From Candidatus Zixiibacteriota bacterium (GTDB lineage: Bacteria; Zixibacteria; MSB-5A5; UBA10806), in assembly GCA_020344055.1 (NCBI GenBank), contig CP070813.1, positions 230,358 through 294,357 of the forward strand: a stretch of 64,000 nucleotides of DNA, given 5' to 3'. This document shows positions 4,266 through 60,869 of this stretch, piece after piece. Made by a program: the position numbers and the translations under genes. The notes under the pieces were generated by a model that saw only the letters and a program-made list of their open reading frames with translations, had not been told where the DNA came from and searched no databases. Position 1 is the stretch's first letter, and each line of letters starts with the position of its first letter.

Positions 4266-4309
4266 TCCATTAACAAAAGAGACTGAATGTCATTGTCAGC
4301 ATTTCAATA

Positions 4310-5775: not shown

Positions 5776-6278
5776 AGATCGGGCTTCTTTCCGTTTATCA
5801 GATCCAGGGCATGACGTAACGCCGGAACCACAACATTCAGATTTTCCAACGCGCCTTGCGGATTCCCCGGAAGATTAATTATTAAGATTCTATCGGCGAT
5901 GCCCGCGACCGACCTCGATAGCATCGAGTTCGGTGTAAATTTCGCCGATTCCCGTCTCATGGCCTCCTCGATTCCGGGAATTCGTTTTTCAATCACCTTC
6001 AATGTCGCCTCAGGTGTAACATCCGTCGGCGCTACACCGGTTCCCCCCGATGTTATAATAAGATCGACTGTTCCCGTTTCAATCCAGCTTTTCAAAACCT
6101 TGAGTATTTTTTTTTCACTATCAGGTACTACTTCGCGAAATATTATCTGAAAACCTAAATCCTTCAAATGATTTTCCAGCATAGGACCCGAGGAATCTTT
6201 CCTGCTCCCCTCATAGGCCCGGTCGCTGGAGATTAATATGGCGGCTTTATATTCACCCACGGCAGTATCCATTATCAA
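5772..6278 (-). CDS. moaB: Molybdopterin adenylyltransferase / Moco biosynthesis protein MoaB (MogA family)
   Basis: 168 aa, AILISSDRAYEGSRKDSSGP...ITSGGTGVAPTDVTPEAT...GNPQ motifs of the MoaB/MogA fold; overlaps neighbours by 4 nt. Confidence 0.8.
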   Translation of the reverse strand: MIMDTAVGEYKAAILISSDRAYEGSRKDSSGPMLENHLKDLGFQIIFREVVPDSEKKILKVLKSWIETGTVDLIITSGGTGVAPTDVTPEATLKVIEKRIPGIEEAMRRESAKFTPNSMLSRSVAGIADRILIINLPGNPQGALENLNVVVPALRHALDLINGKKPDL

Positions 6279-7884: not shown

Positions 7885-8477
7885 ATCACGGATTCGTTAA
7901 TTACATTGTTGTAGTCTTCGACGGTGTCTATATCGATCTGGGAGCTTCCGTCGTAAATAATTACGGCTTCATCCCGGTATTTTTCGAATATGGCGTTTCC
8001 CGCCGGCTCGCCTTCGAGCTTCATTAAATCGTCGAAAAGCGCTCTGGAAAAGATCACCGGATGGCCACGGCCGACAGGTGTTTGAATATACAGGATTAAG
8101 GGCGATTCGCTTTTGAACATGCTTATAGCTTTCTTTATAAGGTCGGATTTTACCGATGGTTTATCAGCCACCATAAACAGTGCAGCTTCCGATCTCTTGT
8201 CAATATTTCTCAAAGCGCATTTGATCGACTCAGCTCTACCTTTATTATATTTTTCATTAAAGACGATCTTTACATTACTCAAGGACTTACTCTCAATCAA
8301 GCGTTTCGCCTTCTCCCCCTGGTATCCCAGAACCACCATAATCTCGGCCAGCCCGGATTCAGCCAGTTGAAAAAGCGATTCCTCGATGACAGTATGCCTC
8401 CCGAAGGGCAAGAGCAGCTTGTTCTTACCCATCCTCTCCGATTTGCCCGCGGCCAAGAGAACGCCGGAAATTTTCAT
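7881..8477 (-). CDS. MobA/MocA-family molybdenum cofactor nucleotidyltransferase (YgfJ-like)
   Basis: ISGVLLAAGKSERMGKNKLLLPF N-terminal NTP_transf_3 motif, 198 aa; first gene of the coupled operon. GTP versus CTP specificity cannot be decided from sequence. Confidence 0.7.
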   Translation of the reverse strand: MKISGVLLAAGKSERMGKNKLLLPFGRHTVIEESLFQLAESGLAEIMVVLGYQGEKAKRLIESKSLSNVKIVFNEKYNKGRAESIKCALRNIDKRSEAALFMVADKPSVKSDLIKKAISMFKSESPLILYIQTPVGRGHPVIFSRALFDDLMKLEGEPAGNAIFEKYRDEAVIIYDGSSQIDIDTVEDYNNVINESVI

Positions 8478-14934: not shown

Positions 14935-15708
14935 ATGAGATTCTTAACCATTGTTACGATCGGGGCCATGATAATCTCTTCTTCGATTGTATGCGCCCAA
15001 CAGAAAGGCGATAGAATGAAAGTCGATAAAGATATGGTTTTAATCCCTGCCGGGGAGTTCATGATGGGCGGCGACACCGAGGACGACCACATGCCGATGC
15101 ATAAAGTTTACGTCGATTCGTTCTATATGGATAAATACGAGGTTACCAACGCCCGGTATCAGAAATACTGCGAGGAAACCGGCGCCGAATATCCCGAGTA
15201 CTGGGGCATGGAGGAGTTCCATTGCGGCCCCGATTTCCCGGATCACCCGGTTGTGGGAGTCAGCTGGCGGGAGGCCAGCGATTACGCCGAATGGGCCGGT
15301 AAACGCCTCCCTACCGAGGCCGAATGGGAATACGCAGCCCGGGGAGGAATGACAGATTACATTTACTCCTATGGTATCGAGTCAGATACAACGAAAGCCA
15401 ACTACAATGTAAAAGGGATAAAGAGAAAAGGAAGCATGCCGGTGGGAAGCTACCCTCCCAACGGTTTCGGCCTTCATGATATGACCGGCAACGTGGTGGA
15501 GTGGGTCACGGATTATTATGATAAAGATTATTACAAAGACAGCCCCGAGAAAAATCCCACCGGCCCCGAGGACGGCAAATTCATGGTAATTCGTGGGGGC
15601 GGCTGGCATTCGGGGGCTTACTGCACCCGGGTCTATTTCCGTAACGCTTTGCGTAGTGGATGGCGGGATATCGCCGTCGGTTTTCGCTGCGTTAGAGATA
15701 TCGAATAA
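14935..15708 (+). CDS. Secreted formylglycine-generating-enzyme (SUMF1/FGE-sulfatase) family protein
   Basis: Signal peptide followed by the FGE-sulfatase domain (VLIPAGEFMMGG...YEVTNARY...HPVVGVSWREASDYAEWAGKRLPTEAEWEYAARGG...RGGGWHS...GFRCV). Confidence 0.7.
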   Translation: MRFLTIVTIGAMIISSSIVCAQQKGDRMKVDKDMVLIPAGEFMMGGDTEDDHMPMHKVYVDSFYMDKYEVTNARYQKYCEETGAEYPEYWGMEEFHCGPDFPDHPVVGVSWREASDYAEWAGKRLPTEAEWEYAARGGMTDYIYSYGIESDTTKANYNVKGIKRKGSMPVGSYPPNGFGLHDMTGNVVEWVTDYYDKDYYKDSPEKNPTGPEDGKFMVIRGGGWHSGAYCTRVYFRNALRSGWRDIAVGFRCVRDIE

Positions 15709-18661: not shown

Positions 18662-20752
18662 ATGAAACGATTTTTTGTCCTTCATTTATTAATTTACTTG
18701 CTTACATTTTCTTCAAATGCTCAAAATATTGAATATGTTAATTCTATCCTGTGGGCGAACGCATTTGATGTCAAAACTGTGAATAACTATGCTTATTGCG
18801 TATATACAAATGGCCTTGTGATTTTCGACATATCCAATCCAGCGCAACCCGAATACTTATCAAATCTCTTTCTACAAGGTGAAGGTGGCAAAATTGAAAT
18901 TTCAGGAAATTATGCATACCTTGCTGACGGTACAAATGGCCTTCAAATTATGGATATAGCTAATCCGGCATCCCCGATTTTGACCGGGAATTACAGTAAT
19001 TCAAGCGATGTCATCGACGTATGCGTTGCAGGATCCTATGCATATATTGCCTGCAGCGATTCGGGACTCCAAATCATAGATATATCCGATCCGGCCAATC
19101 CTCTATGTGTTGGGCAATATACTCTCGGGAATGTAATGGGGCTGCATGTTTCCGGAAATTATGCCTTTATTCCCGTACATGGACTTCTTCTTTACATTAT
19201 AAATATATCCAATCCCTTTAATCCAACATATACAGGCACGTTTTTTACACCAAGCAGACCCCGAGATGTATATGTCGTGGGAGATTACGCCTATTTGGCA
19301 ACAGGCACGTCGGAGTACGGTTCCGGCGGTTTGAAGATCATTAACGTATCCAGTCCGACAAATCCCACTCTGGTAGGAAGTTACGATATGATTTACACAT
19401 ACAGTATTTATGTTTCAGGCGATTATGCATATATTAATGATGGTTCCCTTAAAATAATCGACGTTTCAAATCCGTCTATGCCGACGTTAACTGGTTCATA
19501 TTATACGCCATATTCAGTAAACAATGTTTACGAATCCAACGGTCTTGCTTTTGTTGCCGCTGGGACCTTTGAAATCGTCGACGTATCTGATCCGTATAAT
19601 CCAACGCATTACGGAAGCTACGATTCCCTTGGTGGCGCAAACGATGTTTATGTAGTTGACGAATACACTTATGTGGTAGGCCGATTTTTACAAATTTTAA
19701 ATATGTTCAATCTCGGCAATCCTATATTCTTGGGAAATTACATTACGCAAAATTACGTGCGGGTCGTGACTATTGCAGGGTCATACGCTTACATATTCGA
19801 GCAATATGCTGGAATGCTAATTCTAGATATTTCCGATCCTATGAATCCGGTTGTTGTGGGAAGTTATCCCCTATATGCTCACGACATAGAAATATCGGGC
19901 GAATATGCATATATCGGGGGCGGGCCGAATGGGCTCTTGATTATTGATGTTTCCGATCCTACAACTCCCAATTTGGCGGGAAGTTACTCCTCCCACTATA
20001 TTTACGGCGTTTTTGTTTCCGGAGGTTATGTTTACGCCACTTCCGGATTTAATGGACTTTTAATAATAGACGTGTCTGATCCCATAAATCCATTTCTAAC
20101 CGGAAACTATAATACTTCACATGTTGCATTAGATGTATATGTTAAGGACGAATATGCTTACGTGGCCGATAGAAATTCAGGTCTTCAGATTATTGATGTA
20201 TCCGACCCGTTAAACCCGATTTTTGCGGCAAATTACGACACACCCGGACAAGCTTACGATGTTTTTGTATCGGACCATCATGCTTATGTCGCAGATGGAT
20301 ATCAGGGCCTTCAGATAATAAATATCACAAATCCTTCTATACCCCTATTTGTTGGGGGTTACGATACGCCGGGAAAGTCTGAGAATATTCATGTAAGCGG
20401 CAATTATATCTATTTAGCTGATCTATATTCCCTAATAATACTTCATTTTGACTCTCAAACATATATAAAAGAAGTTAATGACTTACCTTATCAATACTCC
20501 TTTAAACAAAATTATCCCAATCCCTTCAACAATTCTACGATCATTGATTATAAACTCAGGCAATCCGAAATGGTGACTATTGACATTTATGATCTTTTGG
20601 GAAGAAAAATCGAGTCACTCGTTAATAAAATTCAACAGCCGGGCGAATATTCCATTACCTGGGAAGCCCGCGAATTATCCTCAGGACTATATTTCTACAC
20701 TATAAAAGCCGGTGAATTTGCCGAAACCAAGAAGATGATGCTTTTAAAATAG
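18662..20752 (+). CDS. LVIVD-repeat beta-propeller protein with T9SS C-terminal sorting domain
   Basis: More than 10 repeats of the G.Y..xxxGLQIIDVSDPxNP LVIVD motif; signal peptide; C-terminus NYPNPFNNST...KKMMLLK. Gene is markedly AT-rich relative to its neighbours. Confidence 0.8.
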   Translation: MKRFFVLHLLIYLLTFSSNAQNIEYVNSILWANAFDVKTVNNYAYCVYTNGLVIFDISNPAQPEYLSNLFLQGEGGKIEISGNYAYLADGTNGLQIMDIANPASPILTGNYSNSSDVIDVCVAGSYAYIACSDSGLQIIDISDPANPLCVGQYTLGNVMGLHVSGNYAFIPVHGLLLYIINISNPFNPTYTGTFFTPSRPRDVYVVGDYAYLATGTSEYGSGGLKIINVSSPTNPTLVGSYDMIYTYSIYVSGDYAYINDGSLKIIDVSNPSMPTLTGSYYTPYSVNNVYESNGLAFVAAGTFEIVDVSDPYNPTHYGSYDSLGGANDVYVVDEYTYVVGRFLQILNMFNLGNPIFLGNYITQNYVRVVTIAGSYAYIFEQYAGMLILDISDPMNPVVVGSYPLYAHDIEISGEYAYIGGGPNGLLIIDVSDPTTPNLAGSYSSHYIYGVFVSGGYVYATSGFNGLLIIDVSDPINPFLTGNYNTSHVALDVYVKDEYAYVADRNSGLQIIDVSDPLNPIFAANYDTPGQAYDVFVSDHHAYVADGYQGLQIINITNPSIPLFVGGYDTPGKSENIHVSGNYIYLADLYSLIILHFDSQTYIKEVNDLPYQYSFKQNYPNPFNNSTIIDYKLRQSEMVTIDIYDLLGRKIESLVNKIQQPGEYSITWEARELSSGLYFYTIKAGEFAETKKMMLLK

Positions 20753-23516: not shown

Positions 23517-24299
23517 ATGATCGCGCTTGAAAAAGTATCGAAATCCTTCGATAACGGACTTACCTACGCTGTCAGGGAGATCGATCTGGACGTCCGGCCC
23601 GGTGAGCTTCTGGTTCTTCTGGGGGAATCGGGTTGCGGCAAAACCACAACGCTGAAAACCATAAACAGGCTTATTGAACCGACTTCGGGACAGGTAATTA
23701 TCAATGGAGAAGATACAGCGCGAATCGATCCGGTGAAACTCCGGCGGAGCATCGGGTACGTATTTCAGGAGATAGGGCTGTTTCCGCATATAAATATCGC
23801 CGGGAATATCGGTATGGTGCCGAGGCTTCTCGGTTGGCCCGATGAAAAAATCAGGTACAGGACTATTGAACTTCTGATCCTTGTCGGCCTTAAACCTGAC
23901 GAATTCAAAAACAGGATGCCGGAAGAGCTATCGGGCGGTCAGAAACAGAGAATCGGGGTGGCGAGGGCGCTGGCCGCGGGAGCGAAAATTATGCTTATGG
24001 ACGAGCCGTTCGGCGCCCTGGATCCCATAACCAGAACAAACCTGATCGAGGAGTTCGCGAAAATTCAAAAAGAGCTGGAGTTGACCGTGGTAATGGTCAC
24101 CCACGACGTTCTGGAGGCGTTGATCCTGGCCGATAGAATCGCCGTAATGAGATCGGGCGAAATATTGGCGCTGGGAAAACCGGCGGAACTCGTTTCCAAT
24201 CCTCCTCATCCTTACGTTTCAGAACTGCTGAATACGCCGCGCCGTCAGACGGAAAAAGTGAATCGCATAATAAGAGGCGAAAACAGAAGTGACTTATAG
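23517..24299 (+). CDS. ABC transporter ATP-binding protein, OpuC/ProV (osmoprotectant/quaternary-amine) type
   Basis: Walker A GESGCGKTT, ABC signature LSGGQKQR, Walker B IMLMDEPFGALD; 260 aa without CBS tail. Confidence 0.8.
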   Translation: MIALEKVSKSFDNGLTYAVREIDLDVRPGELLVLLGESGCGKTTTLKTINRLIEPTSGQVIINGEDTARIDPVKLRRSIGYVFQEIGLFPHINIAGNIGMVPRLLGWPDEKIRYRTIELLILVGLKPDEFKNRMPEELSGGQKQRIGVARALAAGAKIMLMDEPFGALDPITRTNLIEEFAKIQKELELTVVMVTHDVLEALILADRIAVMRSGEILALGKPAELVSNPPHPYVSELLNTPRRQTEKVNRIIRGENRSDL

Positions 24300-25812
24300 T
24301 TCTATATCGGAACAGCTCGGTCTTTTGCCCGGTTACCTGGGCAATCATCTGCTTTTGACTCTAATCGCCTTAATAGCGGGAATAGTAATCTGTGTTCCCT
24401 GCGGCGTGATGGTAACACGGATTAAATCTTTGCAATGGCCGACTCTAACAATAGCAGGAATTTTACAGACCATCCCCGGTATCGCCCTTCTGGCCATAAT
24501 GGTTCCTCTTCTGGGACGGATCGGTTTTCTGCCCGCGCTGATCGCTCTAATCGTTTACAGCGTTCTTCCAATTCTTCGTAACACCGTAACCGGTATACTG
24601 GGGGTGGAGAAATCGGTTTTGGAGGCGGCCAGGGGAATCGGTATGACCGATATGCAGTCGCTTTTTAAGGTCGAGCTTCCCCTTTCGTTGCCCGTTATTG
24701 TCGCCGGTATCAGGACCGCGGCGGTATGGGTGGTGGGTACGGCCACGCTGGCCACCCCGGTGGGCGCTACCAGCCTGGGAAATTACGTTTTCAGCGGTCT
24801 GCAGACACAGAATATTTCGGCCATTATAGTGGGATGCGTGGCGGCCGCGCTGCTGGCAATCGTACTGGATCAAACCATCAGGTTAACTGAAAAAACCGTC
24901 TCCCGAAGAAACTTCAAATTGGCCGCTCTTACAGCCACCATATTACTGATCCTATTTGCTATCGGGCTGGCTCCCCTCGCCCGTCATCGGGGTATCGGTG
25001 AAACCGGCAAAACGATCGCCATCGGCTCTAAACCTTTCACGGAGCAATATATTCTGGCCAGGCTCATAGCTGATAATCTTTCCAGAAACGGTTTCAATAC
25101 CGATATCCGTTCGGGAATGGGCTCCATTATCCTGTTCGAGGCGTTAGCCAATAATGAGGTCGATTGTTATGTCGATTACACCGGCACTATCTGGACAAAT
25201 GTCATGAAAAAAGACCATCTACCTCCTCGTAGCCGGATATTAATGGAGATGACTGCATGGTTAAAAAAAGAATGCGAAATACTTTGCCCCGGCGCCCTGG
25301 GATTTGAAAATACTTATGCCCTGGCTGTGCGCAAAGAAACCGCTGACCGGTATAACTTGAATACCATCGATGATCTTTCGCGCTTATCTAATGAATTCTC
25401 CATGGGTAGCGACTATGAATTCTTTTCGCGACCCGAATGGAAGGAACTTAAAGACAAATATAATCTGAATTTCAAGGAACTGATAACTCTCGATCCGACC
25501 CTGATGTATAGCGCCATCGCACAAAAACAGGTTGATGTTATCTCCGCATATTCTACCGACGGACGGATTTTAGACTTCGATCTGATGGTGCTGGACGATA
25601 CGAAGCAGGCTCTTCCTCCTTACGACGCGGTTCTGCTGTTATCTGAACGGGCTTCGAAAAATTCAAGTCTGGTCCGAATTCTGAACGATCTGGTTGGAGG
25701 GATAGACGATGATGCCATGCGCAACGCCAACAAGATTGTCGATGTCGACGGCCAATCTGTCGACAGCGCCGCGATCTACCTCAAAAGCCTGATCGATAGT
25801 TCGGGAGATTAA
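24289..25812 (+). CDS. ABC permease fused to a C-terminal glycine-betaine/quaternary-amine-type substrate-binding domain (OpuCB-OpuCC-like fusion)
   Basis: N-terminal half with 5-6 TM helices and the permease EAA-like region (EAARGIGMTD); C-terminal approx 270 aa soluble domain (AIGSKPFTEQYILARLIADNL...DCYVDYTGT) of OpuAC/ProX-like binding-protein type. Confidence 0.7.
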   Translation: MTYSSISEQLGLLPGYLGNHLLLTLIALIAGIVICVPCGVMVTRIKSLQWPTLTIAGILQTIPGIALLAIMVPLLGRIGFLPALIALIVYSVLPILRNTVTGILGVEKSVLEAARGIGMTDMQSLFKVELPLSLPVIVAGIRTAAVWVVGTATLATPVGATSLGNYVFSGLQTQNISAIIVGCVAAALLAIVLDQTIRLTEKTVSRRNFKLAALTATILLILFAIGLAPLARHRGIGETGKTIAIGSKPFTEQYILARLIADNLSRNGFNTDIRSGMGSIILFEALANNEVDCYVDYTGTIWTNVMKKDHLPPRSRILMEMTAWLKKECEILCPGALGFENTYALAVRKETADRYNLNTIDDLSRLSNEFSMGSDYEFFSRPEWKELKDKYNLNFKELITLDPTLMYSAIAQKQVDVISAYSTDGRILDFDLMVLDDTKQALPPYDAVLLLSERASKNSSLVRILNDLVGGIDDDAMRNANKIVDVDGQSVDSAAIYLKSLIDSSGD

Positions 25813-25906: not shown

Positions 25907-26917
25907 ATGACACAGTCAATATTAAAACTTGATTCGGTCGATGTATCCGCATTGGAAAGCTATCGCGAGAAATTCGCCCTGGATGTATTAACCGGATTAT
26001 CGGAACCGCGAAAATCCATTCCCTCAATATATCATTACGATGCCGAGGGAAGCAGGTTATTCACTAAAATTACCGAGCTGCCGGAATATTATCCGACCAG
26101 ATGCGAGGTGGAGACACTTAAAAGAAACATAGGTCGATTCGCCGGTTATATGGAATCGGAAACCATAAACTTGATCGAATTCGGCCCCGGCGACGGCAGC
26201 AAGACCAGGATACTGGTGGAGTACTTCCTGAACAAAGGGCTGGCGTTCCAGTACATTCCCATTGATATATCCTTTTCAGCCCTCGACGATCTGCATCGGG
26301 CGTTTAAAAAATCCTATCCCAAACTGGAGCTCAAAGGGCTGGTGGCCGATTATTTCTCCGGAATAAAGTGGCTTAATAACGAGTATAACCGAAAAAACAT
26401 AGTCCTATTCCTCGGTTCGAACATAGGTAATTTCAATCAGGCAAAATCGAAACTGTTTTTGCGTAATTTATGGAATCACCTCAACGACGGCGATATCGTT
26501 ATAATAGGATTTGATCTCAAAAAGGATATCGATCTATTACTGAGAGCCTACAACGATTCCCAGGGTGTAACGGCTGAATTCAATCTCAACCTGTTACGCA
26601 GAATAAATCGGGAATTGGCCGGTGAATTCGACGTATCGAAATTCAGGTTTTTCGCCACCTACGACGTTTTCAGCGGCGCCATGGAGAGTTACCTGGTCAG
26701 TCTCGAAAAACAGGAAGTGATCATTGGCGAAATAGGAAGATCTTTTCATTTCGATCCCTGGGAGCCTATTCATACTGAGTATTCATACAAATACCTGGAA
26801 TCCGATATTCTCAACCTGGCGAAAAATACAGGTTTTATATTAAAAGAAAATCTTTATGACGAGAAAAAGTACTTTGTAAACTCTGTATGGGAAGTGTACA
26901 AGCCGCACGCCAGTTAA
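25907..26917 (+). CDS. egtD: EgtD-like L-histidine N-alpha-methyltransferase
   Basis: YHYDAEGSRLFTKITELPEYYPTRCE closely matches the EgtD hallmark (Y.YD..GS.LFE.I.ELPEYYPTR.E); SAM-binding EFGPGDGSKT; 336 aa. Confidence 0.8.
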   Translation: MTQSILKLDSVDVSALESYREKFALDVLTGLSEPRKSIPSIYHYDAEGSRLFTKITELPEYYPTRCEVETLKRNIGRFAGYMESETINLIEFGPGDGSKTRILVEYFLNKGLAFQYIPIDISFSALDDLHRAFKKSYPKLELKGLVADYFSGIKWLNNEYNRKNIVLFLGSNIGNFNQAKSKLFLRNLWNHLNDGDIVIIGFDLKKDIDLLLRAYNDSQGVTAEFNLNLLRRINRELAGEFDVSKFRFFATYDVFSGAMESYLVSLEKQEVIIGEIGRSFHFDPWEPIHTEYSYKYLESDILNLAKNTGFILKENLYDEKKYFVNSVWEVYKPHAS

Positions 26918-26924
26918 AGTAATA

Positions 26925-29900
26925 ATGAGCATCGCCGAAAAATACGCCGGAAAAGAGCGCAGAGCCCTCTGCGGAATCTGTCCCGCAGGTTGCTGGGTGA
27001 AGGTCAAATACGATAAGGATGGGAAATTATCGGAGGTTCGCGCCGACGATAGCTCCGAGCTGGGAATGATCTGCAAGCTGGGCGAGCATTCCGCCGATAT
27101 CGTATATTCGGAACACCGCCTGAAATATCCCCTGAAAAGAAAAAGCCCTAAGGGCACCTATGAATTCGAACGGATTTCCTGGGATGAGGCCTATGATATA
27201 ATAGTCGAAAAATTGAATGCGCTTAAATCTCAATTCGGCCCCGAATCAACATGTATATACACCGGCAGGGGAAGTTTCGAGCTTGCCTTATGCGATATCT
27301 TTCAGCCGGCCGGTGTAGCCGTTTCCTCGGCCTCCAGCGTACTGTTTCCCTTCGGATCGCCTAACACCATGGGCGTGGGAGCGCTCTGTTACGTGGCCTT
27401 TGCCATGATCGCCCCGCACGTAACAATGGGGGGTATGCTGATCGATATGTACTCCGATATTGAAAACAGCGATCTAATCGTGGCTTGGGGCGCCAACCCC
27501 GCCACCGACTGCCCGCCGCTGGATCTCAAGAGAATCCTGGCAGCCCGCGATCGGGGAGCTGAGGTGGTAGTGATAGACCCCCGCAGAACCAGAACGGCTA
27601 AAATGACCGACGCCGAATGGGTTCCTGTCCGCCCGGGTACTGACGGCGCTCTAGCCCTGGGAATGTGCAACGTGCTTATAGAAGAAGAGCTTTACGACGA
27701 CGATTTCGCCGGGAACTGGACCGTCGGTTTCGATGATTTCGTAAGATACGTTCAGCATTATCGCCCGGAAGTGGTGGAAAAGACTACCGGTGTGCCAGCG
27801 GATACGGTTGTAAAGCTCGCCAGGAGAATCGCCGGTTCCAACGGCGCCTCTCCCGTTATGTACAGCGGCCTCGAATACAGCGACAGCGGGGTGCAGGCTA
27901 TCCGTGCCACCATGGTGCTGTGGGCGTTAGCGGGACAGCTTGACGTCCCCGGCGGGCGTTGCTTCAGTATGAGGCAAAATCAATTTCCTCTTAACAAAAG
28001 CGGGCATATACCGAATCCTGATCTTAAAAAAGCGCTGGGCAGAGATAAATTCCCGGTTTACAGTTCCTATCGCGGCGAATCGCATGCCATAGTCCTTCCC
28101 GATTCGGTGATACATGGAAAACCTTATAAGATCAGATCGCTAATTATGCATGGCGCTTCCATTACTACTTCCTGGCCGGAACCGCACATCTGGAAAGAAA
28201 CTTTAAACGCCCTCGATTTCCTGGTCTGCATCGACCGGCAACTTACCGCCGACGCCACTTACGCCGACATCGTTCTGCCCGCCACCACCATGTACGAGAT
28301 CGAATCGTACATGACCTACGGCCCGATTTTCAGAATAAGAGAAAAGGTGATCGAGCCGGTCGGCGAGGCAAGAAACGATTTCGTCATAATGGCCGAACTT
28401 GCAAAACATCTCGGCTACGGCCACCTATATCCCCAAAATGAAGAAGAATTATTGAATAAGGTATTGGAAAATTCCGGTTTTACTCTGGAACAGGTACGAG
28501 AAGCCGGTGGCGAAGTACAAGCCCCTACCGTTATGAACCAGTATAAAAAGTGGGAGAAGGGACAACTAAGACCGGATGGTAAGCCAGGATTTGATACACC
28601 TACTGGCAAATTCGAAATAGCCTCGACGATACTGGAAGAACATGGTTATGAGCCCTTGCCGGTATACACTGAACCTGCCGAAAGCCCGCAATCGCGGCCC
28701 GATATGACCGGGAAATATCCACTGGTTTTCAACTCCGGTTCCAGGGTAACGACCGACTTCCGCACCCAGCATCACGGGATACCGTCGTTATACAAACAGC
28801 GGCCCGAACCGACCGTTACCATAAATACACAGGATGCTAAAGAAAGAGATATCAAAACCGGCGATCTCGTTACAATCAAGACCGCCCGCGGACAGGTCGA
28901 TTTGAGAGCGTATGTAACGGATGATATTGTAATGGGCGCCATCGACGCCAACATGGGCGGTGGCGGTCCCGTGGGCCCGGAGGCCTGGCAGAAATGTAAC
29001 ATAAACAATCTCACCGATCTTCAGAGATATGACCCCATATCCGGCTTCCCGGTTTACAAGGCATTGTTATGCGACGTGGTAAAGGCCGGGGTTGCATCCA
29101 ATAAAGTGGTTATCGATTCGGGAGAGGATGGCACGGTAAAAGAATCCAAAAGGATGAAAAAAGAAATGCCCTTGCGCCGCGTCTATCTCGATCATAACGC
29201 CACCACCTATCTCGATCCCGAAGTGCTCAAGGTGATGACCGAATTTATGGAAAATGGTTTCGGTAATCCCTCCTCTATTTACCAGGAGGGACGCAAAGCC
29301 AGGGATGCCCTTGAAGCGGCCCGGCGGAGTATGGCCCAGCTTCTCAATTGCACCGCCCGGCGAATCATCTTCACCGGCGGCGGTTCCGAGGCTAACAACC
29401 TCGCCATCAAGGGAGCGGCATTTGCCAATTGGAATGCCAATAGACATATTATAACATCTGCCATCGAGCATCCTGCGGTGCTCAACGCCTGCAAATGGCT
29501 GGAGAAATTCGGCTTCGAGGTAACATATCTTTCGGTAGATAATACCGGTTTGATAAGCCCGGAGGATTTCGAGAAGGCTATCAAACCCAACACCGTCCTC
29601 GCCACCATCATGCTGGCCAATAACGAGACCGGCACCATCCAGCCTATAAAGGAGCTGGCGAAAATCGCCCATGAAAAATCGATCCTGTTTCATACCGACG
29701 CTACCCAGGGTATCGGGAAGATTCCTGTCGATGTAACAGATCTGGATGTCGATATGCTCTCCATGTCGGGGCACAAGCTTTACGGGCCGAAAGGTGTCGG
29801 CGTATTTTATATAAAATCCGGTCTCGAAATCGATCCCCTCATTCACGGCGGCAAGCAGGAACGGGGCCAGCGCGCCGGTACCGAAAACATGGTAAATATA

Positions 29901-30332
29901 GTGGGGATGGGAAAAGCGGCCGAGATAGCGGTGCAGAAGCTTCCGGAGATGGATAAGCTGCGAAAGATGAGGGATAAGCTGGAACAGGGTATAAGAAAAC
30001 TAGTACCCGACGTCAGGCTCAACGGCCACGAAACTGAAAGATTACCAAACACCTTGAATCTCACCCTCCCCGGCATGCGGGGCGAATCGGTTACCCTAGC
30101 TCTCGATCAAAGAGGCATTTCCATATCGTCCGGTTCCGCCTGCAGATCCGGCTCGCCTAAACCGTCTCACGCTCTGCTCGCCATGGGCCTGAGCGAGGAC
30201 GACGCCCACTGCGCTATAAGATTATCACTGGGCCTTAAAAACACCGAGGACGATATCGATTACGCTCTCAGGCAGTTCGGGGCGGTCATCAAAGACGATA
30301 AAAGCTCGGTGCGGTTTATACCGTGCAGGTAG
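26925..30332 (+). CDS. Metallopterin-dependent ergothioneine synthase-like fusion: Mo/W-bisPGD oxidoreductase module (aa 1 to approx 740) + NifS-like cysteine desulfurase module (aa approx 748-1135)
   Basis: Single uninterrupted 1135-codon ORF. N-terminus has the CGICPAGC Fe-S cysteine motif and molybdopterin-oxidoreductase and molybdopterin-dinucleotide-binding-like regions. From nt approx 29166 the sequence is a class-V aminotransferase (YLDHNATTYLDPEV, PLP-lysine SGHKLYGPKG, active-site SSGSACRSG). Starts 7 nt after egtD. Confidence 0.75.
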   Translation: MSIAEKYAGKERRALCGICPAGCWVKVKYDKDGKLSEVRADDSSELGMICKLGEHSADIVYSEHRLKYPLKRKSPKGTYEFERISWDEAYDIIVEKLNALKSQFGPESTCIYTGRGSFELALCDIFQPAGVAVSSASSVLFPFGSPNTMGVGALCYVAFAMIAPHVTMGGMLIDMYSDIENSDLIVAWGANPATDCPPLDLKRILAARDRGAEVVVIDPRRTRTAKMTDAEWVPVRPGTDGALALGMCNVLIEEELYDDDFAGNWTVGFDDFVRYVQHYRPEVVEKTTGVPADTVVKLARRIAGSNGASPVMYSGLEYSDSGVQAIRATMVLWALAGQLDVPGGRCFSMRQNQFPLNKSGHIPNPDLKKALGRDKFPVYSSYRGESHAIVLPDSVIHGKPYKIRSLIMHGASITTSWPEPHIWKETLNALDFLVCIDRQLTADATYADIVLPATTMYEIESYMTYGPIFRIREKVIEPVGEARNDFVIMAELAKHLGYGHLYPQNEEELLNKVLENSGFTLEQVREAGGEVQAPTVMNQYKKWEKGQLRPDGKPGFDTPTGKFEIASTILEEHGYEPLPVYTEPAESPQSRPDMTGKYPLVFNSGSRVTTDFRTQHHGIPSLYKQRPEPTVTINTQDAKERDIKTGDLVTIKTARGQVDLRAYVTDDIVMGAIDANMGGGGPVGPEAWQKCNINNLTDLQRYDPISGFPVYKALLCDVVKAGVASNKVVIDSGEDGTVKESKRMKKEMPLRRVYLDHNATTYLDPEVLKVMTEFMENGFGNPSSIYQEGRKARDALEAARRSMAQLLNCTARRIIFTGGGSEANNLAIKGAAFANWNANRHIITSAIEHPAVLNACKWLEKFGFEVTYLSVDNTGLISPEDFEKAIKPNTVLATIMLANNETGTIQPIKELAKIAHEKSILFHTDATQGIGKIPVDVTDLDVDMLSMSGHKLYGPKGVGVFYIKSGLEIDPLIHGGKQERGQRAGTENMVNIVGMGKAAEIAVQKLPEMDKLRKMRDKLEQGIRKLVPDVRLNGHETERLPNTLNLTLPGMRGESVTLALDQRGISISSGSACRSGSPKPSHALLAMGLSEDDAHCAIRLSLGLKNTEDDIDYALRQFGAVIKDDKSSVRFIPCR

Positions 30333-33099: not shown

Positions 33100-34182
33100 A
33101 TGAGCGTATTTTCCTCATGCAGGTTACTTATAATATCAAGCTTTACTATTTTGGCATCAATTTTACTATTCCCTTCAACGGGTGAATGCCAGGTAATTTC
33201 CGGTCATTCGCGATTTTTACTGGTGGCCCCCGACGCTCGCGGCAAAAGCCTGGCCGACGGCGGTAGCGTATTCTCAAAGAGCGCGGCCTCGGTATATTAC
33301 AACCCGGCGCTCCTTGTAACCGGCTATCAGTTTTCGGCGGAGGTAAATTACTGTAAGCATTTGCCGCTTCTTTCAGATGTTTCAATTAGTAATTATTTCA
33401 TTTCAAAAAGCCTTAATGACTGGGGCTATTTTGGTATAGGATATTCAAGGCATGATTATGGAGGTGGAGAACGACTGGACGAATATTATCGAACGATTAA
33501 ACCTTACGCATATTCCCTGGGTATCTGGTATGCGATTTCATTCGATCCTTATAATTCGTGTGGAATAGGCGTCAAGTTTATAAAGATCCATGCGGGGCGA
33601 TACAGAATAGATTCTTCGACGCTCGAGGCCTCGTCAATGGCAATTGATTTCGGGATGCTATCAAGAAATCACCTCCCGCAGGCGACCTGGCAAAATGACG
33701 AGATATTTTACCCCCATATTAACAGGCTTTTTAAGGTAGAGAGGGATAAGGGATTTTCCTTCGGGATTTCGTTCTCAAATCTTGGGAGGGATCTTGAATA
33801 TGAACATTATCCTTATTCCGAATCCATTCCGAAACGGCTTCGCGTCGCCGCCGGATACCAGGCGGTGGATTCGGAGCCGGTGGGATTGCGTTTGACGGTT
33901 GACGCCACCAGAGTGCTGATCGATATGGATGATTCGTTCAGAGAAGAATGGAGTGAGGTTGCCTGGTCATACGGATTGGAATCGACTTTCTATTATATCG
34001 TTCATTTCCGCTTCGGCAGGTTATTGGATCGGGGCGATCACCAGCGATACAATACCATCGGATTCGGTGTCGGACCGGAGTGGCTGAGCTTGGATTATTC
34101 GTATGTGTTAGACAGCGATGATCGATGGAATCGAAGCGGCGAAGAATATTCGTTTTCCCTTAGATGTAATATTTCACCATAA
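33100..34182 (+). CDS. Signal-peptide protein, paralog 1 of a tandem triplicated family (predicted outer-membrane beta-barrel-like; possibly PorV/PorQ-type T9SS-associated, unverified)
   Basis: 360 aa; shares with paralogs 2 and 3 the blocks PDARGKSL..GGSVFS, YYNPALLVT, LGIWAA.SFDP.NS.G.GIK, FDFG.LSRNHLP, ERD.GFSFG.S, AGYQA.DSEPVGLRL.VDAT, WSYGLE.TFYY, RFNT.GFG.GPEW.SLDYS, EEYS.S.RCNISP. Confidence 0.5.
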   Translation: MSVFSSCRLLIISSFTILASILLFPSTGECQVISGHSRFLLVAPDARGKSLADGGSVFSKSAASVYYNPALLVTGYQFSAEVNYCKHLPLLSDVSISNYFISKSLNDWGYFGIGYSRHDYGGGERLDEYYRTIKPYAYSLGIWYAISFDPYNSCGIGVKFIKIHAGRYRIDSSTLEASSMAIDFGMLSRNHLPQATWQNDEIFYPHINRLFKVERDKGFSFGISFSNLGRDLEYEHYPYSESIPKRLRVAAGYQAVDSEPVGLRLTVDATRVLIDMDDSFREEWSEVAWSYGLESTFYYIVHFRFGRLLDRGDHQRYNTIGFGVGPEWLSLDYSYVLDSDDRWNRSGEEYSFSLRCNISP

Positions 34183-34257
34183 GTCATGTAGCTCGGTAGC
34201 TTGCTACCGCCATCGGTATGGTTCCCAAGCGGCGCTTGGGAACCAGGAATATATAAT

Positions 34258-34372
34258 TTGTAGGGACAGATCACCGATCTGTCCTTATTTAAATTAAAAT
34301 ACACCTACTCAAAATATAAATGGGATCTTTTCTGGATTATAACTATAAAACCATTTATAATATAATTTCCTG
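34258..34372 (+). repeat. Intergenic cassette copy B upstream of paralog 2
   Basis: TGTAGGGACAGATCACCGATCTGTCC ... GGGATCTTTTCTGGATTATAACTATAAAACCATTTATAATATAA; near-identical to copy A in both sub-blocks. Confidence 0.6.
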
Positions 34373-34388
34373 AGCAAAGGAGAATCAG

Positions 34389-35498
34389 ATGGGTGTATCT
34401 TTTCCAGGCCGGCGTTACCTAATAGCAGGTTTTACTATTTTTGCGTCAATCACGCTATTGCCGGCATACGGGCAAAGCCAGGACGGCCATATTGAGGCTC
34501 GATTTCTCTTAATACCTCCCGACGCCCGCGGCAGAGCTCTCGGCGAGGGCGGCAGCGTCTTCTCCAAAGGGGCGATTTCCGCCTATTATAACCCCGCACT
34601 TCTGGTTACCAGCGAGCTGTTTTCCGGTGAGTTCAATTACAGCGATTACGCGCCCGATTTCGTTGACGGCATGTCCACCAAAAATATCTTCATATCAAAT
34701 AATATAGATGATATGGTTTTTTGCGCCCTGGGATATACTAGATTTGACTTTTCCAATGGTTTAGATATACCCGAGTATGAGTCTGAATCTTATGACTATT
34801 CGCTGGGTATCTGGGCAGCGGTTTCATTTGACCCTCATAATTCATTGGGGGCGGGAATCAAATATATTAAAAGGTATCACCAATCATCTTATATGGGATC
34901 GGATTATGTATCATCGCGTGAAGGATCCTCCTACGCGTTCGATTTCGGCCTGCTATCCCGGAATCACCTGCCGGTTACCACCTTATACAACGATACGATT
35001 TATTACCCTGTCTTACACAAGCTGTTTAAAGTCGAGAGAGACAGGGGATTTTCATTCGGTATCTCCCTGGCTAATGTCGGTAAGGCAATGACATTCTTCG
35101 AAAAAGATAGAGCCGATCCAATTCCCAGAAATTTCCGATTCGCCGCTGGATATCAGGCGATCGACACCGAACCTGTAGGCCTGCGATTGACCCTCGACGC
35201 CACCAAACTGCTTATCGACGTTGATGATTCCTTTAAAGAGGAATGGAACGAAATCGTCTGGTCGTACGGCCTTGAAGCTACGTTTTATTATATTTTACAT
35301 TTTCGCCTTGGACGGCTATTTGACCGCGATAGCTACCAACGGTTCAATACCGTCGGATTCGGTATCGGCCCGGAGTGGCTCAGCCTGGATTATTCCACGA
35401 TTCTGGGAGATACCGATGATTGGCGCTGGAACAGAAGAGCTGAAGAATATTCGATCTCAATTAGATGTAATATTTCGCCGAATGATTTAAACTTGTAG
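34389..35498 (+). CDS. Signal-peptide protein, paralog 2 of the tandem family
   Basis: 369 aa; same conserved blocks as paralog 1 (about 50% identity by eye), preceded by the same intergenic cassette. Confidence 0.5.
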   Translation: MGVSFPGRRYLIAGFTIFASITLLPAYGQSQDGHIEARFLLIPPDARGRALGEGGSVFSKGAISAYYNPALLVTSELFSGEFNYSDYAPDFVDGMSTKNIFISNNIDDMVFCALGYTRFDFSNGLDIPEYESESYDYSLGIWAAVSFDPHNSLGAGIKYIKRYHQSSYMGSDYVSSREGSSYAFDFGLLSRNHLPVTTLYNDTIYYPVLHKLFKVERDRGFSFGISLANVGKAMTFFEKDRADPIPRNFRFAAGYQAIDTEPVGLRLTLDATKLLIDVDDSFKEEWNEIVWSYGLEATFYYILHFRLGRLFDRDSYQRFNTVGFGIGPEWLSLDYSTILGDTDDWRWNRRAEEYSISIRCNISPNDLNL

Positions 35499-35530
35499 GT
35501 CGGCCCCGCGGAACGCGGGGCTGCCGACAC

Positions 35531-35565
35531 GCTGTTATTGGGACAGATCATCGACCCGTCCTTTA
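35531..35565 (+). repeat. Intergenic cassette copy C (terminator part only) upstream of paralog 3
   Basis: GCTGTTATTGGGACAGATCATCGACCCGTCC, nearly identical to the copy-A hairpin; the leader block has diverged. Confidence 0.5.
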
Positions 35566-35674
35566 TTTGTATCCATATAAATAATAATCGCTTGCAATAT
35601 ACAATCATAAACTCTATTATGGTTTAGAATTGAAAATACAATGCAAGCATCATCCGCACCGAAGGGGAAAGGCC

Positions 35675-36799
35675 ATGAAAGTATTATCGAGCTATCTCAA
35701 AAGCAAATATGTTAGAGCCGGTATAATCGTTATTGCATCAGTCGCATTATTGCCTTCGATTGGGCAGTGTCAGGCACGGTATACAAATCCGCAATTCTTA
35801 TTGATAGCCCCGGACGCCCGGGGCAAAAGCCTGGGCGGAGGCGGAAGCGTGTTTTCCATAGGCGCCATTTCCGCATATTATAATCCCGCGCTTCTTGTGA
35901 CCAGCGAGGAGTTTTCGGGAGAGTATAATTATTGCGGTTATATGCCGAAAATCGCTGACGATTTATTCCCGAAAAATATCTACCTTTCTTCCAATTACAG
36001 GGATTTGCTCTATTTTGGAATGGGCTATTCCAAATTTAGTTACGGGGAACAGGAACGGATGGACGAATTGGGAAATCTGTTGGGTAGATTCGAATCATAT
36101 GAATCTGCTCTGGGTTTCTGGGCCGCCATTACCTTTGATCCGGACAACTCATTTGGAGCCGGAATTAAATACATTGAAAGCCATCTGGCGGAAGTCGGGG
36201 CCGGGTCGGAAAGAGGTAGAGGCGATGCCTCGACCGTTGCTTTTGATTTCGGCATATTGTCTCGAAACCATCTTCCCGAAGCAACCTGGCAGAATGAAAA
36301 GATATTTTATCCTGATCTCCGCAGGCTTTTCGGGGTGGAAAGAGATTTGGGATTTTCATTCGGTGTGTCGATCGCGAACCTGGGCGAAGGTCTGGAATAT
36401 ATCGATGAGGACCAGTCCTATCCTCTCCCAAAACGACTTCGTTTAGGCCTCGGATACCAGGCTATCGATTCGGAGCCGGTCGGATTACGATTGGCCGTCG
36501 ACGCCACCAAAATATTGGTTTATATGAATGACCCCTTCGAAAGAGAATGGTACGAAATCGTCTGGTCGTACGGCTTGGAATCTACCTTCTATTATCTGTT
36601 TAGTATCCGATTCGGGCGTATGTTAGACCGCGATGGCCATCAGAGATTTAATACTATCGGATTCGGTATAGGGCCGGAATGGTTCAGTCTGGATTATTCC
36701 CGCGTTCTGGATAGCGATATCGACTGGAATCGAAGAGGCGATGAATATTCAATTTCGATCAGATGCAATATCTCCCCGAAGACTTTTAAGAACTTTTAA
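35675..36799 (+). CDS. Signal-peptide protein, paralog 3 of the tandem family
   Basis: Start placed at MKVLSSY (signal peptide) inside ORF 35630..36799; same conserved blocks; ends in ...KTFKNF (aromatic C-terminus, as expected for barrel OMPs). Confidence 0.5.
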   Translation: MKVLSSYLKSKYVRAGIIVIASVALLPSIGQCQARYTNPQFLLIAPDARGKSLGGGGSVFSIGAISAYYNPALLVTSEEFSGEYNYCGYMPKIADDLFPKNIYLSSNYRDLLYFGMGYSKFSYGEQERMDELGNLLGRFESYESALGFWAAITFDPDNSFGAGIKYIESHLAEVGAGSERGRGDASTVAFDFGILSRNHLPEATWQNEKIFYPDLRRLFGVERDLGFSFGVSIANLGEGLEYIDEDQSYPLPKRLRLGLGYQAIDSEPVGLRLAVDATKILVYMNDPFEREWYEIVWSYGLESTFYYLFSIRFGRMLDRDGHQRFNTIGFGIGPEWFSLDYSRVLDSDIDWNRRGDEYSISIRCNISPKTFKNF

Positions 36800-48364: not shown

Positions 48365-49651
48365 GTGAATATGCACGGCGGTAATGAGAAATTCTCCTGG
48401 AAAAACGTACTTCCCAACTGCAAACCGATAACAAGGGTGCTCTCCGCGGGATACGACCCGGCGTTTTCCGAGATGTCGGCGAAAACCCCTATTTTCCCCA
48501 CGTCGACTTTTCTTTTCAAATCCGCCGAACATGGAGAGAGATTTTTTTACCTGATGAGTCACCCCGAGGAAAGAGGGCAGGACGAAGATCCCGGGCTGAT
48601 TTATTCCAGGATGAACAATCCCAACATGGAAATAGCTGAGGATAAGATGCTGGTTCTGGAGCCCGGCGCCGAGGACGCCGCGGTCCTGCCATCGGGGATG
48701 TCCGCCATTTCCACTATGTGCCTGGCGCTTCTCAAACCCGGCGATATAATTTTATATTCGGCGCCCGTCTATGGAGGGACCGAGCACCTTTTCGAAATGG
48801 TTTTCCCCAAATTCGGGATCGAAACCAAACCGGTTTACTCCCCGGAGGCAAGCGAGTATCGGGGCAACCTCGATAAATACAAAGACCGGATCGCCATGAT
48901 ATTCATCGAGACTCCCACCAATCCCACAATCGTCCATACCGATATTCAGGAAATCGCAGGGTTGGCAGGGGAATATAGATCGGCCGAAAACGGGATTAAG
49001 GTGGCTGTCGATAATACCTTCATGGGGCCGGTCTTCCAGAATCCCATCCCGCTGGGCGCGGATCTGGTGATATACTCCGCCACAAAATTCATCGGCGGGC
49101 ACTCCGACCTGATCGGCGGTTTCGTGCTCGGGAAAAAAGGCGATATCCGGCTGATAAAATCCTATCGTTCCGTTCTGGGAGCGACCACCGATCCTTTTTG
49201 CTGCTGGATGATATCACGGTCCCTCGAAACAATCGATCTCAGGGTGAAAAAATGCTCCGAAAACGCCGCCAAAATCGCCGCTTTCCTGGCCGATCACCGC
49301 AAAATAAAAAAAGTGGTTTATCCCACCGTTCTGGATAAGGAAAGCTCACAATATCAGATCTATAAAAAGCAGTGCCGGGGCCCGGGGGCTCTGATCTCCT
49401 TTTATATCAACGGAGGGAAAAAAGAAGCCTTCTCCCTATTGGACAATGTGGAGGTCTGCAAGCTCGCCGTCAGCCTGGGAGGGACCGAAACCTTGATACA
49501 GCATCCCAGACGGATGACCCATGCTGACGTATCCGACGATATGTGCGAAAAAGTTGGACTGACTGACTCCATGATCCGACTCTCGGTCGGCATCGAGGAC
49601 CCGGACGACATAATTGACGATCTGAAAAAAGCGCTGGGAAAAGTCGGTTAA
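48365..49651 (+). CDS. PLP-dependent Cys/Met-metabolism enzyme (methionine gamma-lyase / cystathionine gamma-synthase family)
   Basis: Cys_Met_Meta_PP family blocks (NPN..IAEDKMLVLEPGAEDAAVLPSGMSAI..., YSATKFIGGHSDLIGG with the PLP-lysine). Confidence 0.7.
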   Translation: MNMHGGNEKFSWKNVLPNCKPITRVLSAGYDPAFSEMSAKTPIFPTSTFLFKSAEHGERFFYLMSHPEERGQDEDPGLIYSRMNNPNMEIAEDKMLVLEPGAEDAAVLPSGMSAISTMCLALLKPGDIILYSAPVYGGTEHLFEMVFPKFGIETKPVYSPEASEYRGNLDKYKDRIAMIFIETPTNPTIVHTDIQEIAGLAGEYRSAENGIKVAVDNTFMGPVFQNPIPLGADLVIYSATKFIGGHSDLIGGFVLGKKGDIRLIKSYRSVLGATTDPFCCWMISRSLETIDLRVKKCSENAAKIAAFLADHRKIKKVVYPTVLDKESSQYQIYKKQCRGPGALISFYINGGKKEAFSLLDNVEVCKLAVSLGGTETLIQHPRRMTHADVSDDMCEKVGLTDSMIRLSVGIEDPDDIIDDLKKALGKVG

Positions 49652-60836: not shown

Positions 60837-60869
60837 TCCGAACCTCGCCCTCGAAGGTTGAAGGAACTA

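Follow-up and report, generated by a model that had tools for sequence, protein, structure and literature searches.

The locus and its fusion gene

The window, by which we mean the whole 64,000-nt stretch of DNA that was analysed, contains a fusion gene for a putative metallopterin-dependent ergothioneine synthase (MES), an egtD gene next to it and, further upstream, two genes of an ABC importer. Residues are given below with their counterparts in CaMES, the metallopterin-dependent ergothioneine synthase of Caldithrix abyssi (Beliaeva & Seebeck, JACS Au 2022; PMC9516567).

23517..24299, + strand: ProV-like ABC ATPase, overlapping the next gene (24289..25812) by 11 nt (Pfam ABC_tran)
24289..25812, + strand: ABC permease (N-terminal) fused to an AfProX-type betaine-binding domain (C-terminal), 507 aa (Pfam BPD_transp_1, OpuAC)
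25907..26917, + strand: EgtD, L-histidine N-alpha-methyltransferase, the trimethylhistidine maker (TIGR03438, Pfam Methyltransf_33, PDB)
26925..30332, + strand: probable MES orthologue, a single ORF of 1135 aa (ORF, Pfam, identity to CaMES)
26925..29126, + strand: N-terminal Mo/W bis-pterin module of the DMSO-reductase family, residues 1-734 (Pfam Molybdopterin, Molydop_binding)
26970..27074, + strand: Fe4S4-binding cysteines C16, C19, C23 and C50 (CaMES Cys14, 17, 21 and 48; pairwise alignment)
27387..27389, + strand: C155, predicted Cys ligand of the Mo/W centre (aligns with CaMES Cys153 and with the ligand Cys of acetylene hydratase)
29127..29174, + strand: variable, basic inter-module linker (KESKRMKKEMPL), residues 735-750 (alignment, AlphaFold2)
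29175..30329, + strand: NifS/IscS-type PLP cysteine desulfurase module, residues 751-1135 (Aminotran_5, NifS TIGR03402, PDB)
29775..29777, + strand: K951, PLP Schiff-base lysine (CaMES Lys952; alignment), kept in 80/80 loci
30141..30143, + strand: C1073, persulfide-forming loop cysteine (CaMES Cys1074; alignment)
30210..30212, + strand: C1096 (CaMES Cys1097; alignment), conserved but dispensable
30324..30326, + strand: C1134 in the tail FIPCR, second relay cysteine (CaMES Cys1135; alignment)

The MES ORF runs from an ATG to a TAG without an internal stop. Pfam finds three domains in it: Molybdopterin (residues 65-494, 8e-44), Molydop_binding (602-713, 2e-19) and Aminotran_5 (753-1113, 7e-86). 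An earlier sequence-only reading had named these three domains and proposed an uninterrupted fusion of a metallopterin module and a desulfurase module; the 1135-aa frame and its Pfam matches bear this out.

The CGICPAGC stretch that had been picked out as an N-terminal Fe-S motif does supply C16, C19 and C23. Together with C50, these cysteines are invariant in 66 aligned proteins and are present at 79 of 80 related loci, the sole exception being a gap; C155 is kept in all 80. The end of the beta-barrel, put at about residue 740, needs a minor correction: the Pfam domain stops at 713, and family conservation runs on to DSGE at residues 731-734. From homology to the DMSO-reductase family we infer that the module would bind a Mo or W bis-MGD cofactor. 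No MES has yet been obtained pure at full length, and even for CaMES bis-MGD, Mo/W, the Fe4S4 cluster and an M=S intermediate are deduced (PMC9516567).

The best solved relative of the N-terminal module is tungsten-dependent acetylene hydratase (PDB 2E7Z, 6e-68), whose CxxCxxxC...C Fe4S4 motif and Cys metal ligand align with those of the MES. The hydratase, however, is without a desulfurase domain, and its catalytic Asp (presumably Asp13), which follows the second Fe-S cysteine in a C-D pair that aligns with C19-P20, is replaced by Pro20; across the 80 loci the residue found here is always P, S or A and never Asp. Its chemistry is hydration, as against C-S bond formation in MES. To our knowledge, no Mo/W enzyme other than MES is known to make such a bond.

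The start of the desulfurase module had been placed near nt 29166, which is where M748 of MPLRRVYLDHNATT lies, and the PLP lysine of SGHKLYGP and the active-site cysteine of SSGSACRSG had been correctly picked out as well, being K951 and C1073. The latter is present in 79 of the 80 loci, where the lone exception is a contig end, and C1134 in 77, where every exception is a contig end; C1096 is found in 76, with Arg instead in L035 and L047. Solved class-V desulfurases of the NifS/IscS type (PDB 1P3W, 5WT2 and 9WEP) align with the module end to end (1e-110 to 1e-94) and share its PLP lysine and mobile-loop cysteine, while the MES module differs in its fusion to a pterin module and in its extra essential C-terminal cysteine, C1134. 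NifS and IscS deliver sulfur to scaffold or carrier proteins, whereas MES does so intramolecularly (PMC9516567). The module scores 509.8 bits with the NifS equivalog TIGR03402 (cutoff 530.75) and 386.9 with the IscS model (cutoff 643.2), and it passes the IscS-subfamily model PRK02948 at 325.3 (cutoff 304).

Orthology to CaMES and probable ergothioneine synthesis

The window protein and C. abyssi MES (locus L010) are 70% identical over their full length, 77% in the N-terminal and 62% in the C-terminal module. They are of nearly equal length (1135 and 1136 aa), have the same three-domain order and a shared C-terminal tail, ...RF(I/V)PCR, and are both co-encoded with EgtD. The L010 protein has Cys or Lys at each residue number cited in PMC9516567. 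All nine residues named or tested in that study are kept in the window protein (C16, C19, C23, C50, C155, K951, C1073, C1134 and C1096) and are invariant or nearly so in the 66 proteins; true substitutions across the 80 loci occur only at the C1096 position, which is dispensable (PMC9516567). The residues by which the discoverers admitted proteins to the family, Cys153, Lys952, Cys1074, Cys1097 and Cys1135 (Table S1 legend, PMC9516567), all have their counterparts here. In CaMES, C153S abolishes activity and K952A abolishes ergothioneine synthesis, C1074S and C1135S each bring activity down 2000-fold, and C1097S has a mere 2-fold effect (PMC9516567). The isolated C-terminal module of CaMES is an active desulfurase in vitro (PMC9516567).

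The window protein differs from CaMES in its host, which is Zixibacteria-like, a phylum absent from Table S1 of PMC9516567. The nearest genome is that of a Zixibacteria MAG, and its genes stand in the same order. The nearest homologue, L001, looks truncated at its C-terminus (residues 1-1080), but this was traced to a run of N in the assembly and is not biology.

The EgtD stop codon lies 7 nt before the MES ATG, in the same orientation. Its product scores 299.3 bits with the NCBIfam equivalog TIGR03438 (cutoff 290.9), matches Pfam Methyltransf_33 at 1e-93 and solved EgtD (PDB 7SCF, 4PIM) at 1e-47, and conserves the YYPTR, FLGSxIGN, GVTAxFN and TExS stretches. EgtD adjoins MES in 59 of the 80 loci, that is, in 59 of the 70 whose flanks are both available; it is upstream in the window, but downstream of MES in 35 of those 59. 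The corresponding figure given by the discoverers is 55 of ~80 genomes (PMC9516567). The sequence-only reading had missed both the ergothioneine synthase function and the EgtD gene 7 nt upstream.

We read the window gene, at a probability of about 0.9, as an MES which with EgtD would make up a two-enzyme, O2-independent pathway to ergothioneine in a Zixibacteria-like anaerobe; this assignment is made by sequence comparison. The same role, sulfurization of EgtD-made trimethylhistidine, is played elsewhere by EanB (rhodanese-like, anaerobic) and EgtB (an O2-dependent sulfoxide synthase), whose folds and chemistry are unrelated to those of MES; domain and family profile searches showed no homologue of either beside EgtD in the window. 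MES matters as an O2-independent ergothioneine route, and confident orthologues map which anaerobes make this antioxidant. With the window protein the family now reaches into a Zixibacteria-like genome; otherwise this protein adds little, the importer linkage described below aside.

Among the 70 well-flanked loci, 11 are without an adjacent EgtD, and some of these family members might use imported trimethylhistidine (TMH) or different substrates. In the case of the window protein it is improbable that a sulfur transferase of the MES family serves a substrate other than TMH, for example another heterocycle, or uses selenocysteine to make selenoneine. Besides the 11 loci, such a reading draws on the discoverers' speculation that oxidative heterocycle sulfurization may be more widespread (PMC9516567), and on the lack of any defined TMH-binding residues, by which specificity becomes unreadable from sequence. 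Set against it are the closely spaced, co-oriented EgtD gene, the high identity to a proven ergothioneine maker, and the breadth of activity in the family: CaMES, AbMES, EaMES and hvMES come from different lineages and made ergothioneine in E. coli, so that distant homologues from an archaeon, Abyssubacteria and a vent metagenome have all done so (PMC9516567).

Proposed sulfur relay and the role of the fusion

Every mechanistic step for the window MES itself is taken over by orthology and would run as follows. EgtD, as its equivalog match suggests, would trimethylate histidine to TMH (hercynine). The PLP module, with its Schiff base on K951, would then convert L-cysteine to alanine and leave a persulfide on loop C1073. 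From there the sulfane sulfur would pass via tail C1134, in the same polypeptide, to the Mo/W bis-MGD held by C155, and an Fe4S4 cluster would sit on C16, C19, C23 and C50. Mutagenesis of CaMES showed that neither relay cysteine can be spared and that the sulfur stays within one polypeptide (PMC9516567); the order of the two cysteines is one that we infer. Imidazole C2 of TMH would finally attack an M(VI)=S sulfido group, ergothioneine would leave, and M(IV) would be resulfurated. The discoverers put this attack forward as a tentative proposal, and isotope exchange in CaMES revealed the sulfur transfer to be reversible (PMC9516567).

In the sequence-only reading, a short basic linker could give the SSGSAC cysteine direct access to the metal. 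The linker is there as quoted, but direct reach finds no support, and the C-terminal Cys1135 of CaMES, which is equally essential, points to a relay. Conservation in the protein is lowest at the linker (residues 721-750 are 23% identical to CaMES), and the distance from E734 to R752 varies from 14 to 22 aa across the 80 loci; the linker of the window protein is basic, shorter than that of CaMES and without sequence resemblance to it. An AlphaFold2 model built from the 66-sequence alignment (pLDDT 72.8, pTM 0.53) falls below pLDDT 50 at residues 735-749. It is weakest at the metal site, linker, Cys loop and tail, the elements of the relay, and so neither backs nor contradicts the reach of C1073 or C1134 to C155. 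The PDB search found no full-length MES structure, and the literature searched held no later structural or mechanistic MES papers.

It is very unlikely that the desulfurase domain serves maturation only, by sulfurating Moco, in the manner of ABA3 or of systems assisted by XdhC, or by Fe-S insertion, and does not supply sulfur for each turnover. ABA3 has an N-terminal NifS-like domain and a C-terminal MOSC domain, an architecture that differs from that of MES. In other systems, maturing Mo cofactors do receive sulfur from cysteine desulfurases (PMC9516567), and XdhC-like and MOSC genes are found elsewhere in the window. The K952A variant of CaMES, however, still exchanges 34S between ergothioneine and TMH and makes no ergothioneine de novo (PMC9516567), which means that the desulfurase is needed for turnover and not for activation. 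Pro20, in the place of the catalytic Asp, likewise argues against a hydratase-type module that is merely matured by its neighbour.

Both modules lie in one uninterrupted frame in 79 of the 80 related loci, which come from other genomes of many phyla. Each of the top 120 database homologues is a full-length fusion of ~1,090-1,184 aa in which these three domains recur, and in a set of 185,579 species-representative genomes at least 584, from many bacterial and archaeal lineages, encode relatives of MES, so that to call this a rare domain pairing was an overstatement. The architecture is already known, having been published and named MES in 2022. The top database homologues are still publicly annotated as 'NifS/IscS cysteine desulfurase', and no MES-specific NCBIfam model is among the 25 best matches of the window protein.

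Comparison across these loci confirms the fusion as a genuine single polypeptide, a DMSO-reductase-family bis-pterin module joined to a NifS-like desulfurase, and excludes the hidden stop or frameshift that the sequence-only reading had considered. Neighbouring Mo/W oxidoreductase and nifS/iscS genes that a sequencing error or a chimeric assembly had run together would fit the poor conservation and low model confidence of residues 735-750 and the in-frame ATG (M748, with AAGGA before it) where the desulfurase module begins, but this artefact is effectively refuted by the comparison, because the two modules share a frame in 79 of 80 independent loci, because the top homologues are full-length fusions, and because CaMES, which has no M748 in the alignment, is itself a fusion for which fusion is obligatory for activity (PMC9516567).

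Genomic surroundings and the linked importer

Genes for MoaA, MoaC and MoaB/Mog are present within the window, so the organism makes molybdopterin; no MobA gene (MGD synthesis) was identified in the window, where a nearby nucleotidyltransferase is MocA-like, below cutoff. The Moco biosynthesis cluster (3.8-8.5 kb) was considered as part of the MES system and rejected, since ~19 kb of unrelated genes lie between. Its accessory YqeB, XdhC-like and MocA-like genes suggest a client of the xanthine-dehydrogenase type.

Promoter and terminator scans of 23000-31800 gave counts within shuffle expectation, and operon limits are not indicated by them. In the Rfam scan there was no riboswitch or other RNA element near the operon, the sole match being a cobalamin riboswitch 30 kb away. 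The GC content of the operon (0.41-0.55) is like that of its flanks and unremarkable, giving no sign of recent transfer by base composition.

The permease-binding gene is probably in the same operon as egtD-MES, and both it and the ATPase gene are syntenic in L001 and L002. The ATPase scores 291 bits with the proV subfamily, below the cutoff of 326.6. The EgtUV importer of S. pneumoniae and H. pylori (PMC9732360) has the same build, an ATPase plus a permease fused to an OpuAC-type binding domain. Solved EgtU binding domains match that of the window at ~1e-33 to 1e-37, whereas the glycine-betaine binder AfProX (1SW2) is much closer at 1e-56, and Gly244, Phe293 and Tyr337 of SpEgtU are Phe, Tyr and Phe in the window, as in AfProX (F15, Y63, F107). 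The linked transporter was accordingly rejected as an EgtUV, the specificity determinants of EgtU being absent.

It is possible, though we hold it only tentatively, that the AfProX-type importer is a dedicated transporter of the pathway, distinct from the EgtUV type, which would import hercynine for MES or take ergothioneine up again. Imported TMH was a better substrate source than co-expressed EgtD (PMC9516567), a paper that makes no mention of a transporter linked to MES. That the linkage to a betaine-type importer recurs in other phyla is a modest new point, previously unreported. Beside egtD-MES the importer takes two forms, permease-SBD in the window and its Zixibacteria relatives and SBD-permease in Scalindua and Gemmatimonadota, and these two architectures span at least three lineages. 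All of the linked importers have an AfProX-like aromatic cage and a common Asp109-to-Asn change.

The fused reading frame

26925..30332 (+), ORF encoding a homologue of MES (metallopterin-dependent ergothioneine synthase); 1135 codons, ATG start, TAG stop, zero internal stops

The single-frame fusion proposed in the sequence-only reading is borne out by this uninterrupted ORF, in whose product Pfam finds Molybdopterin (residues 65-494, 8e-44), Molydop_binding (602-713, 2e-19) and Aminotran_5 (753-1113, 7e-86). The motifs also lie where that reading placed them, with C16, C19 and C23 in CGICPAGC, M748 at nt 29166, K951 in SGHKLYGP and C1073 in SSGSACRSG. A stop or frameshift hidden near the junction, which would leave two ordinary adjacent genes, is ruled out by comparison with homologues: of the 80 loci that a genome scan retrieved, 79 have one uninterrupted frame spanning both modules. 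The best 120 protein-database homologues are all ~1,090-1,184 aa long, with the same set of domains as the window protein, and at least 584 genomes (scanned at one genome per species) encode a relative. Hence the fusion is genuine and widely distributed, and to call it a rare domain pairing was an overstatement. The exceptional locus, L025, has a lone in-frame stop at about residue 963 of an otherwise full-length MES homologue (assembly error, pseudogene or recoding are possible). In L001, a Zixibacteria chromosome, an N-run after residue 1080 deletes the final ~55 codons of MES.

At the start of the desulfurase module (29140..29168, +), M748 has an in-frame ATG with an AAGGA ~11 nt 5′ of it, and separate translation of this module is conceivable. 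M748 is not conserved in CaMES, the Caldithrix abyssi enzyme, and in the published CaMES data separate polypeptides fail to sustain synthesis (PMC9516567).

Identity and proposed sulfur relay

25907..26917 (+), EgtD, L-histidine N-alpha-methyltransferase; stop 7 nt 5′ of the MES ATG

Judged by its sequence, the window protein is a straightforward orthologue of MES, an enzyme class already found, named and functionally characterised in 2022 (PMC9516567). CaMES has 1136 aa, with an N-terminal module akin to tungsten acetylene hydratase (Fe4S4 cysteines 14, 17, 21 and 48; metal ligand Cys153) and a C-terminal cysteine desulfurase (Lys952 and Cys1074, with Cys1097 and Cys1135 also conserved), and four MES homologues from different lineages converted trimethylhistidine to ergothioneine in E. 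coli (PMC9516567). A C. abyssi MAG locus from our scan (L010) was used as the CaMES stand-in, since its protein is 1136 aa long and each position numbered in that study holds a Cys or Lys. Over its full length the window protein shares 70% identity with this stand-in (N module, 77%; C module, 62%; linker, 23%) and keeps all nine diagnostic residues (C16, C19, C23, C50, C155, K951, C1073, C1096 and C1134), which are invariant in a 66-protein alignment, C1096 nearly so. Wherever one of the 80 loci departs from an essential residue, the departure is a gap left by a contig end or an N-run, and true substitutions at the nine residues occur only in two Bacteroidota MAGs (L035 and L047), both C1096 to Arg. 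This natural variation fits the mutagenesis, where C153S, K952A, C1074S and C1135S were practically inactive and C1097S, the equivalent of the one residue replaced, caused only a 2-fold loss (PMC9516567). The window protein also falls within the inclusion criterion of Table S1 of the MES discoverers (PMC9516567).

The EgtD gene was recognized by TIGR03438 (NCBIfam, 299.3 bits versus a cutoff of 290.9), Pfam Methyltransf_33 (1e-93) and solved EgtD structures (1e-47). At 59 of the 80 loci (59/70 where both flanks are present) EgtD is no more than 600 nt from the MES gene, upstream of MES in 24 and downstream in 35, which agrees with the co-occurrence reported for 55 of about 80 genomes (PMC9516567).

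Carried over by orthology, the published CaMES mechanism is the best-supported one for the window protein. Trimethylhistidine would be produced by EgtD, cysteine sulfur would be moved to C1073 by the PLP module, and it would then reach the Mo/W centre held by C155 by way of the tail cysteine C1134, all in the same chain; the trimethylhistidine imidazole C2 would attack M(VI)=S, which would then be regenerated. Two differently inactivated CaMES polypeptides did not complement each other, so that sulfur transfer is intramolecular, and K952A CaMES retains 34S exchange between ergothioneine and trimethylhistidine, so that it is turnover, rather than maturation, that needs the desulfurase (PMC9516567). 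The proposal that the SSGSAC cysteine could get to the metal directly thanks to a short linker is supported only in part: a second, C-terminal cysteine is required in the published data, and no element is less conserved than the linker (E734-R752 spacing, 14-22 aa), which is basic in the window lineage only. An AlphaFold2 model of the window protein (pLDDT 72.8, pTM 0.53) has its lowest confidence at the metal site (115-169), linker (735-749), Cys loop (1072-1077) and tail (1131-1135).

Among solved structures, acetylene hydratase 2E7Z is nearest to the N module (6e-68), and its Fe-S motif and metal-ligand Cys have aligned counterparts in the window protein. In the hydratase, the Asp after the second Fe-S cysteine, which we take to be the catalytic Asp13, corresponds to Pro20 of the window protein, a position occupied by P, S or A, and never D, in the 80 loci. 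We read the N module as having acetylene hydratase's cofactor scaffold yet not being a hydratase. NifS/IscS desulfurases match the C module along its whole length (1e-94 to 1e-110), and its 509.8 bits on the NifS equivalog, just under the 530.75 cutoff, fit a specialised offshoot. A PDB search with the window protein found no chain spanning both modules, and a literature search found no later structural or mechanistic MES paper.

The MES family is systematically under-annotated. Where the source gives a name, homologues P0004-P0120 of the protein-database matches are called 'cysteine desulfurase NifS', 'IscS subfamily cysteine desulfurase' or 'aminotransferase class V-fold PLP-dependent enzyme'; 'ergothioneine synthase' is absent among them. 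The NCBIfam models that match the window protein best are those for NifS/IscS, which score under the respective equivalog cutoffs, and none of the best 25 is specific to MES.

Linked transporter and operon limits

23517..24299 (+), ProV-like ABC ATPase; with the permease fusion directly upstream of EgtD, 11-nt overlap with the next gene
24289..25812 (+), permease fused to an OpuAC-type binding domain, 507 aa; between the ATPase and EgtD

The overall build of this transporter is similar to the ergothioneine importer EgtUV, but its binding domain is far nearer the glycine-betaine binder AfProX (1e-56) than the solved EgtU domains (1e-33 to 1e-37). Assignment as EgtU was rejected because the domain has AfProX residues at all three positions that separate SpEgtU from AfProX (PMC9732360). 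Operon linkage of such a betaine-type ABC importer to egtD-MES recurs in two Zixibacteria relatives (L001 and L002), in Scalindua (L005, L006 and L008) and in Gemmatimonadota/unclassified bacteria (L061 and L064); L046 has it too. In the Scalindua and Gemmatimonadota/unclassified loci an ATPase and an SBD-permease fusion adjoin egtD-MES, with domain order opposite to the window's. All these binding domains share an AfProX-type cage and an Asp109-to-Asn (D109N) change and are without the SpEgtU ergothioneine determinants. That two domain architectures were recruited to the same neighbourhood suggests a pathway role for the transporter, which might be hercynine uptake or re-import of ergothioneine. 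No linked transporter is mentioned in the MES paper (PMC9516567), and this unreported linkage, the lasting NifS/IscS mis-annotation of the family and the relay geometry are the residual value of the finding.

The downstream WG-repeat protein and glycine C-acetyltransferase genes are linked to MES in none of the 80 loci, so we end the operon unit at 30332.

Other window genes and the host

3801..8477 (-), molybdopterin biosynthesis cluster: MOSC-domain protein, MoaC, MoaA, MoaB/Mog-like, YqeB, XdhC-like chaperone, MocA-like cytidylyltransferase
14935..15708 (+), 257-aa protein with a lone FGE-sulfatase domain (Pfam, 6e-61)
48365..49651 (+), cystathionine gamma-synthase/methionine gamma-lyase family PLP enzyme (PRK07049, 468 bits, under the 504 cutoff)
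58620..60836 (-), TonB-dependent receptor gene, cobalamin riboswitch immediately 5′
60861..61036 (-), cobalamin riboswitch (Rfam RF00174, 73 bits), directly upstream of the receptor gene

The molybdopterin cluster, which is not contiguous with the MES operon, shows cofactor capacity. Its accessory genes point to a client other than MES, either a xanthine dehydrogenase or a selenium-dependent hydroxylase; YqeB, of selenium-dependent Mo cofactor biosynthesis, scores 290 bits versus a cutoff of 220, the MocA-like cytidylyltransferase scores under cutoff, and no MobA was seen within the 64-kb window. EgtB and OvoA have C-terminal domains of the FGE-sulfatase fold family, and EgtB also has a DinB-like domain; no second Pfam domain of this or another kind was detected in the 257-aa protein, which is probably formylglycine-generating-enzyme-like and unrelated to the ergothioneine operon. 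The PLP enzyme belongs to sulfur amino-acid metabolism, with 18 kb between it and the MES operon and no sign that the two are linked. The TonB-dependent receptor is presumably for B12 uptake.

Zixibacteria are missing from the 2022 genome table (PMC9516567). The closest locus among the matches listed is on Candidatus Zixiibacteriota chromosome CP070742.1, with 91% identity in MES and 82% DNA identity over 23415-30163 in identical gene order, so the window comes from a related but distinct species. Three tandem PorV-like outer-membrane paralogues (33100..36799, +), and type IX secretion C-terminal sorting domains on several proteins (1132..2484, 18662..20752 and 61124..63734), indicate a T9SS-using lineage. 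T9SS is associated with the FCB group, and these signs would fit a Zixibacteria/FCB-group host.
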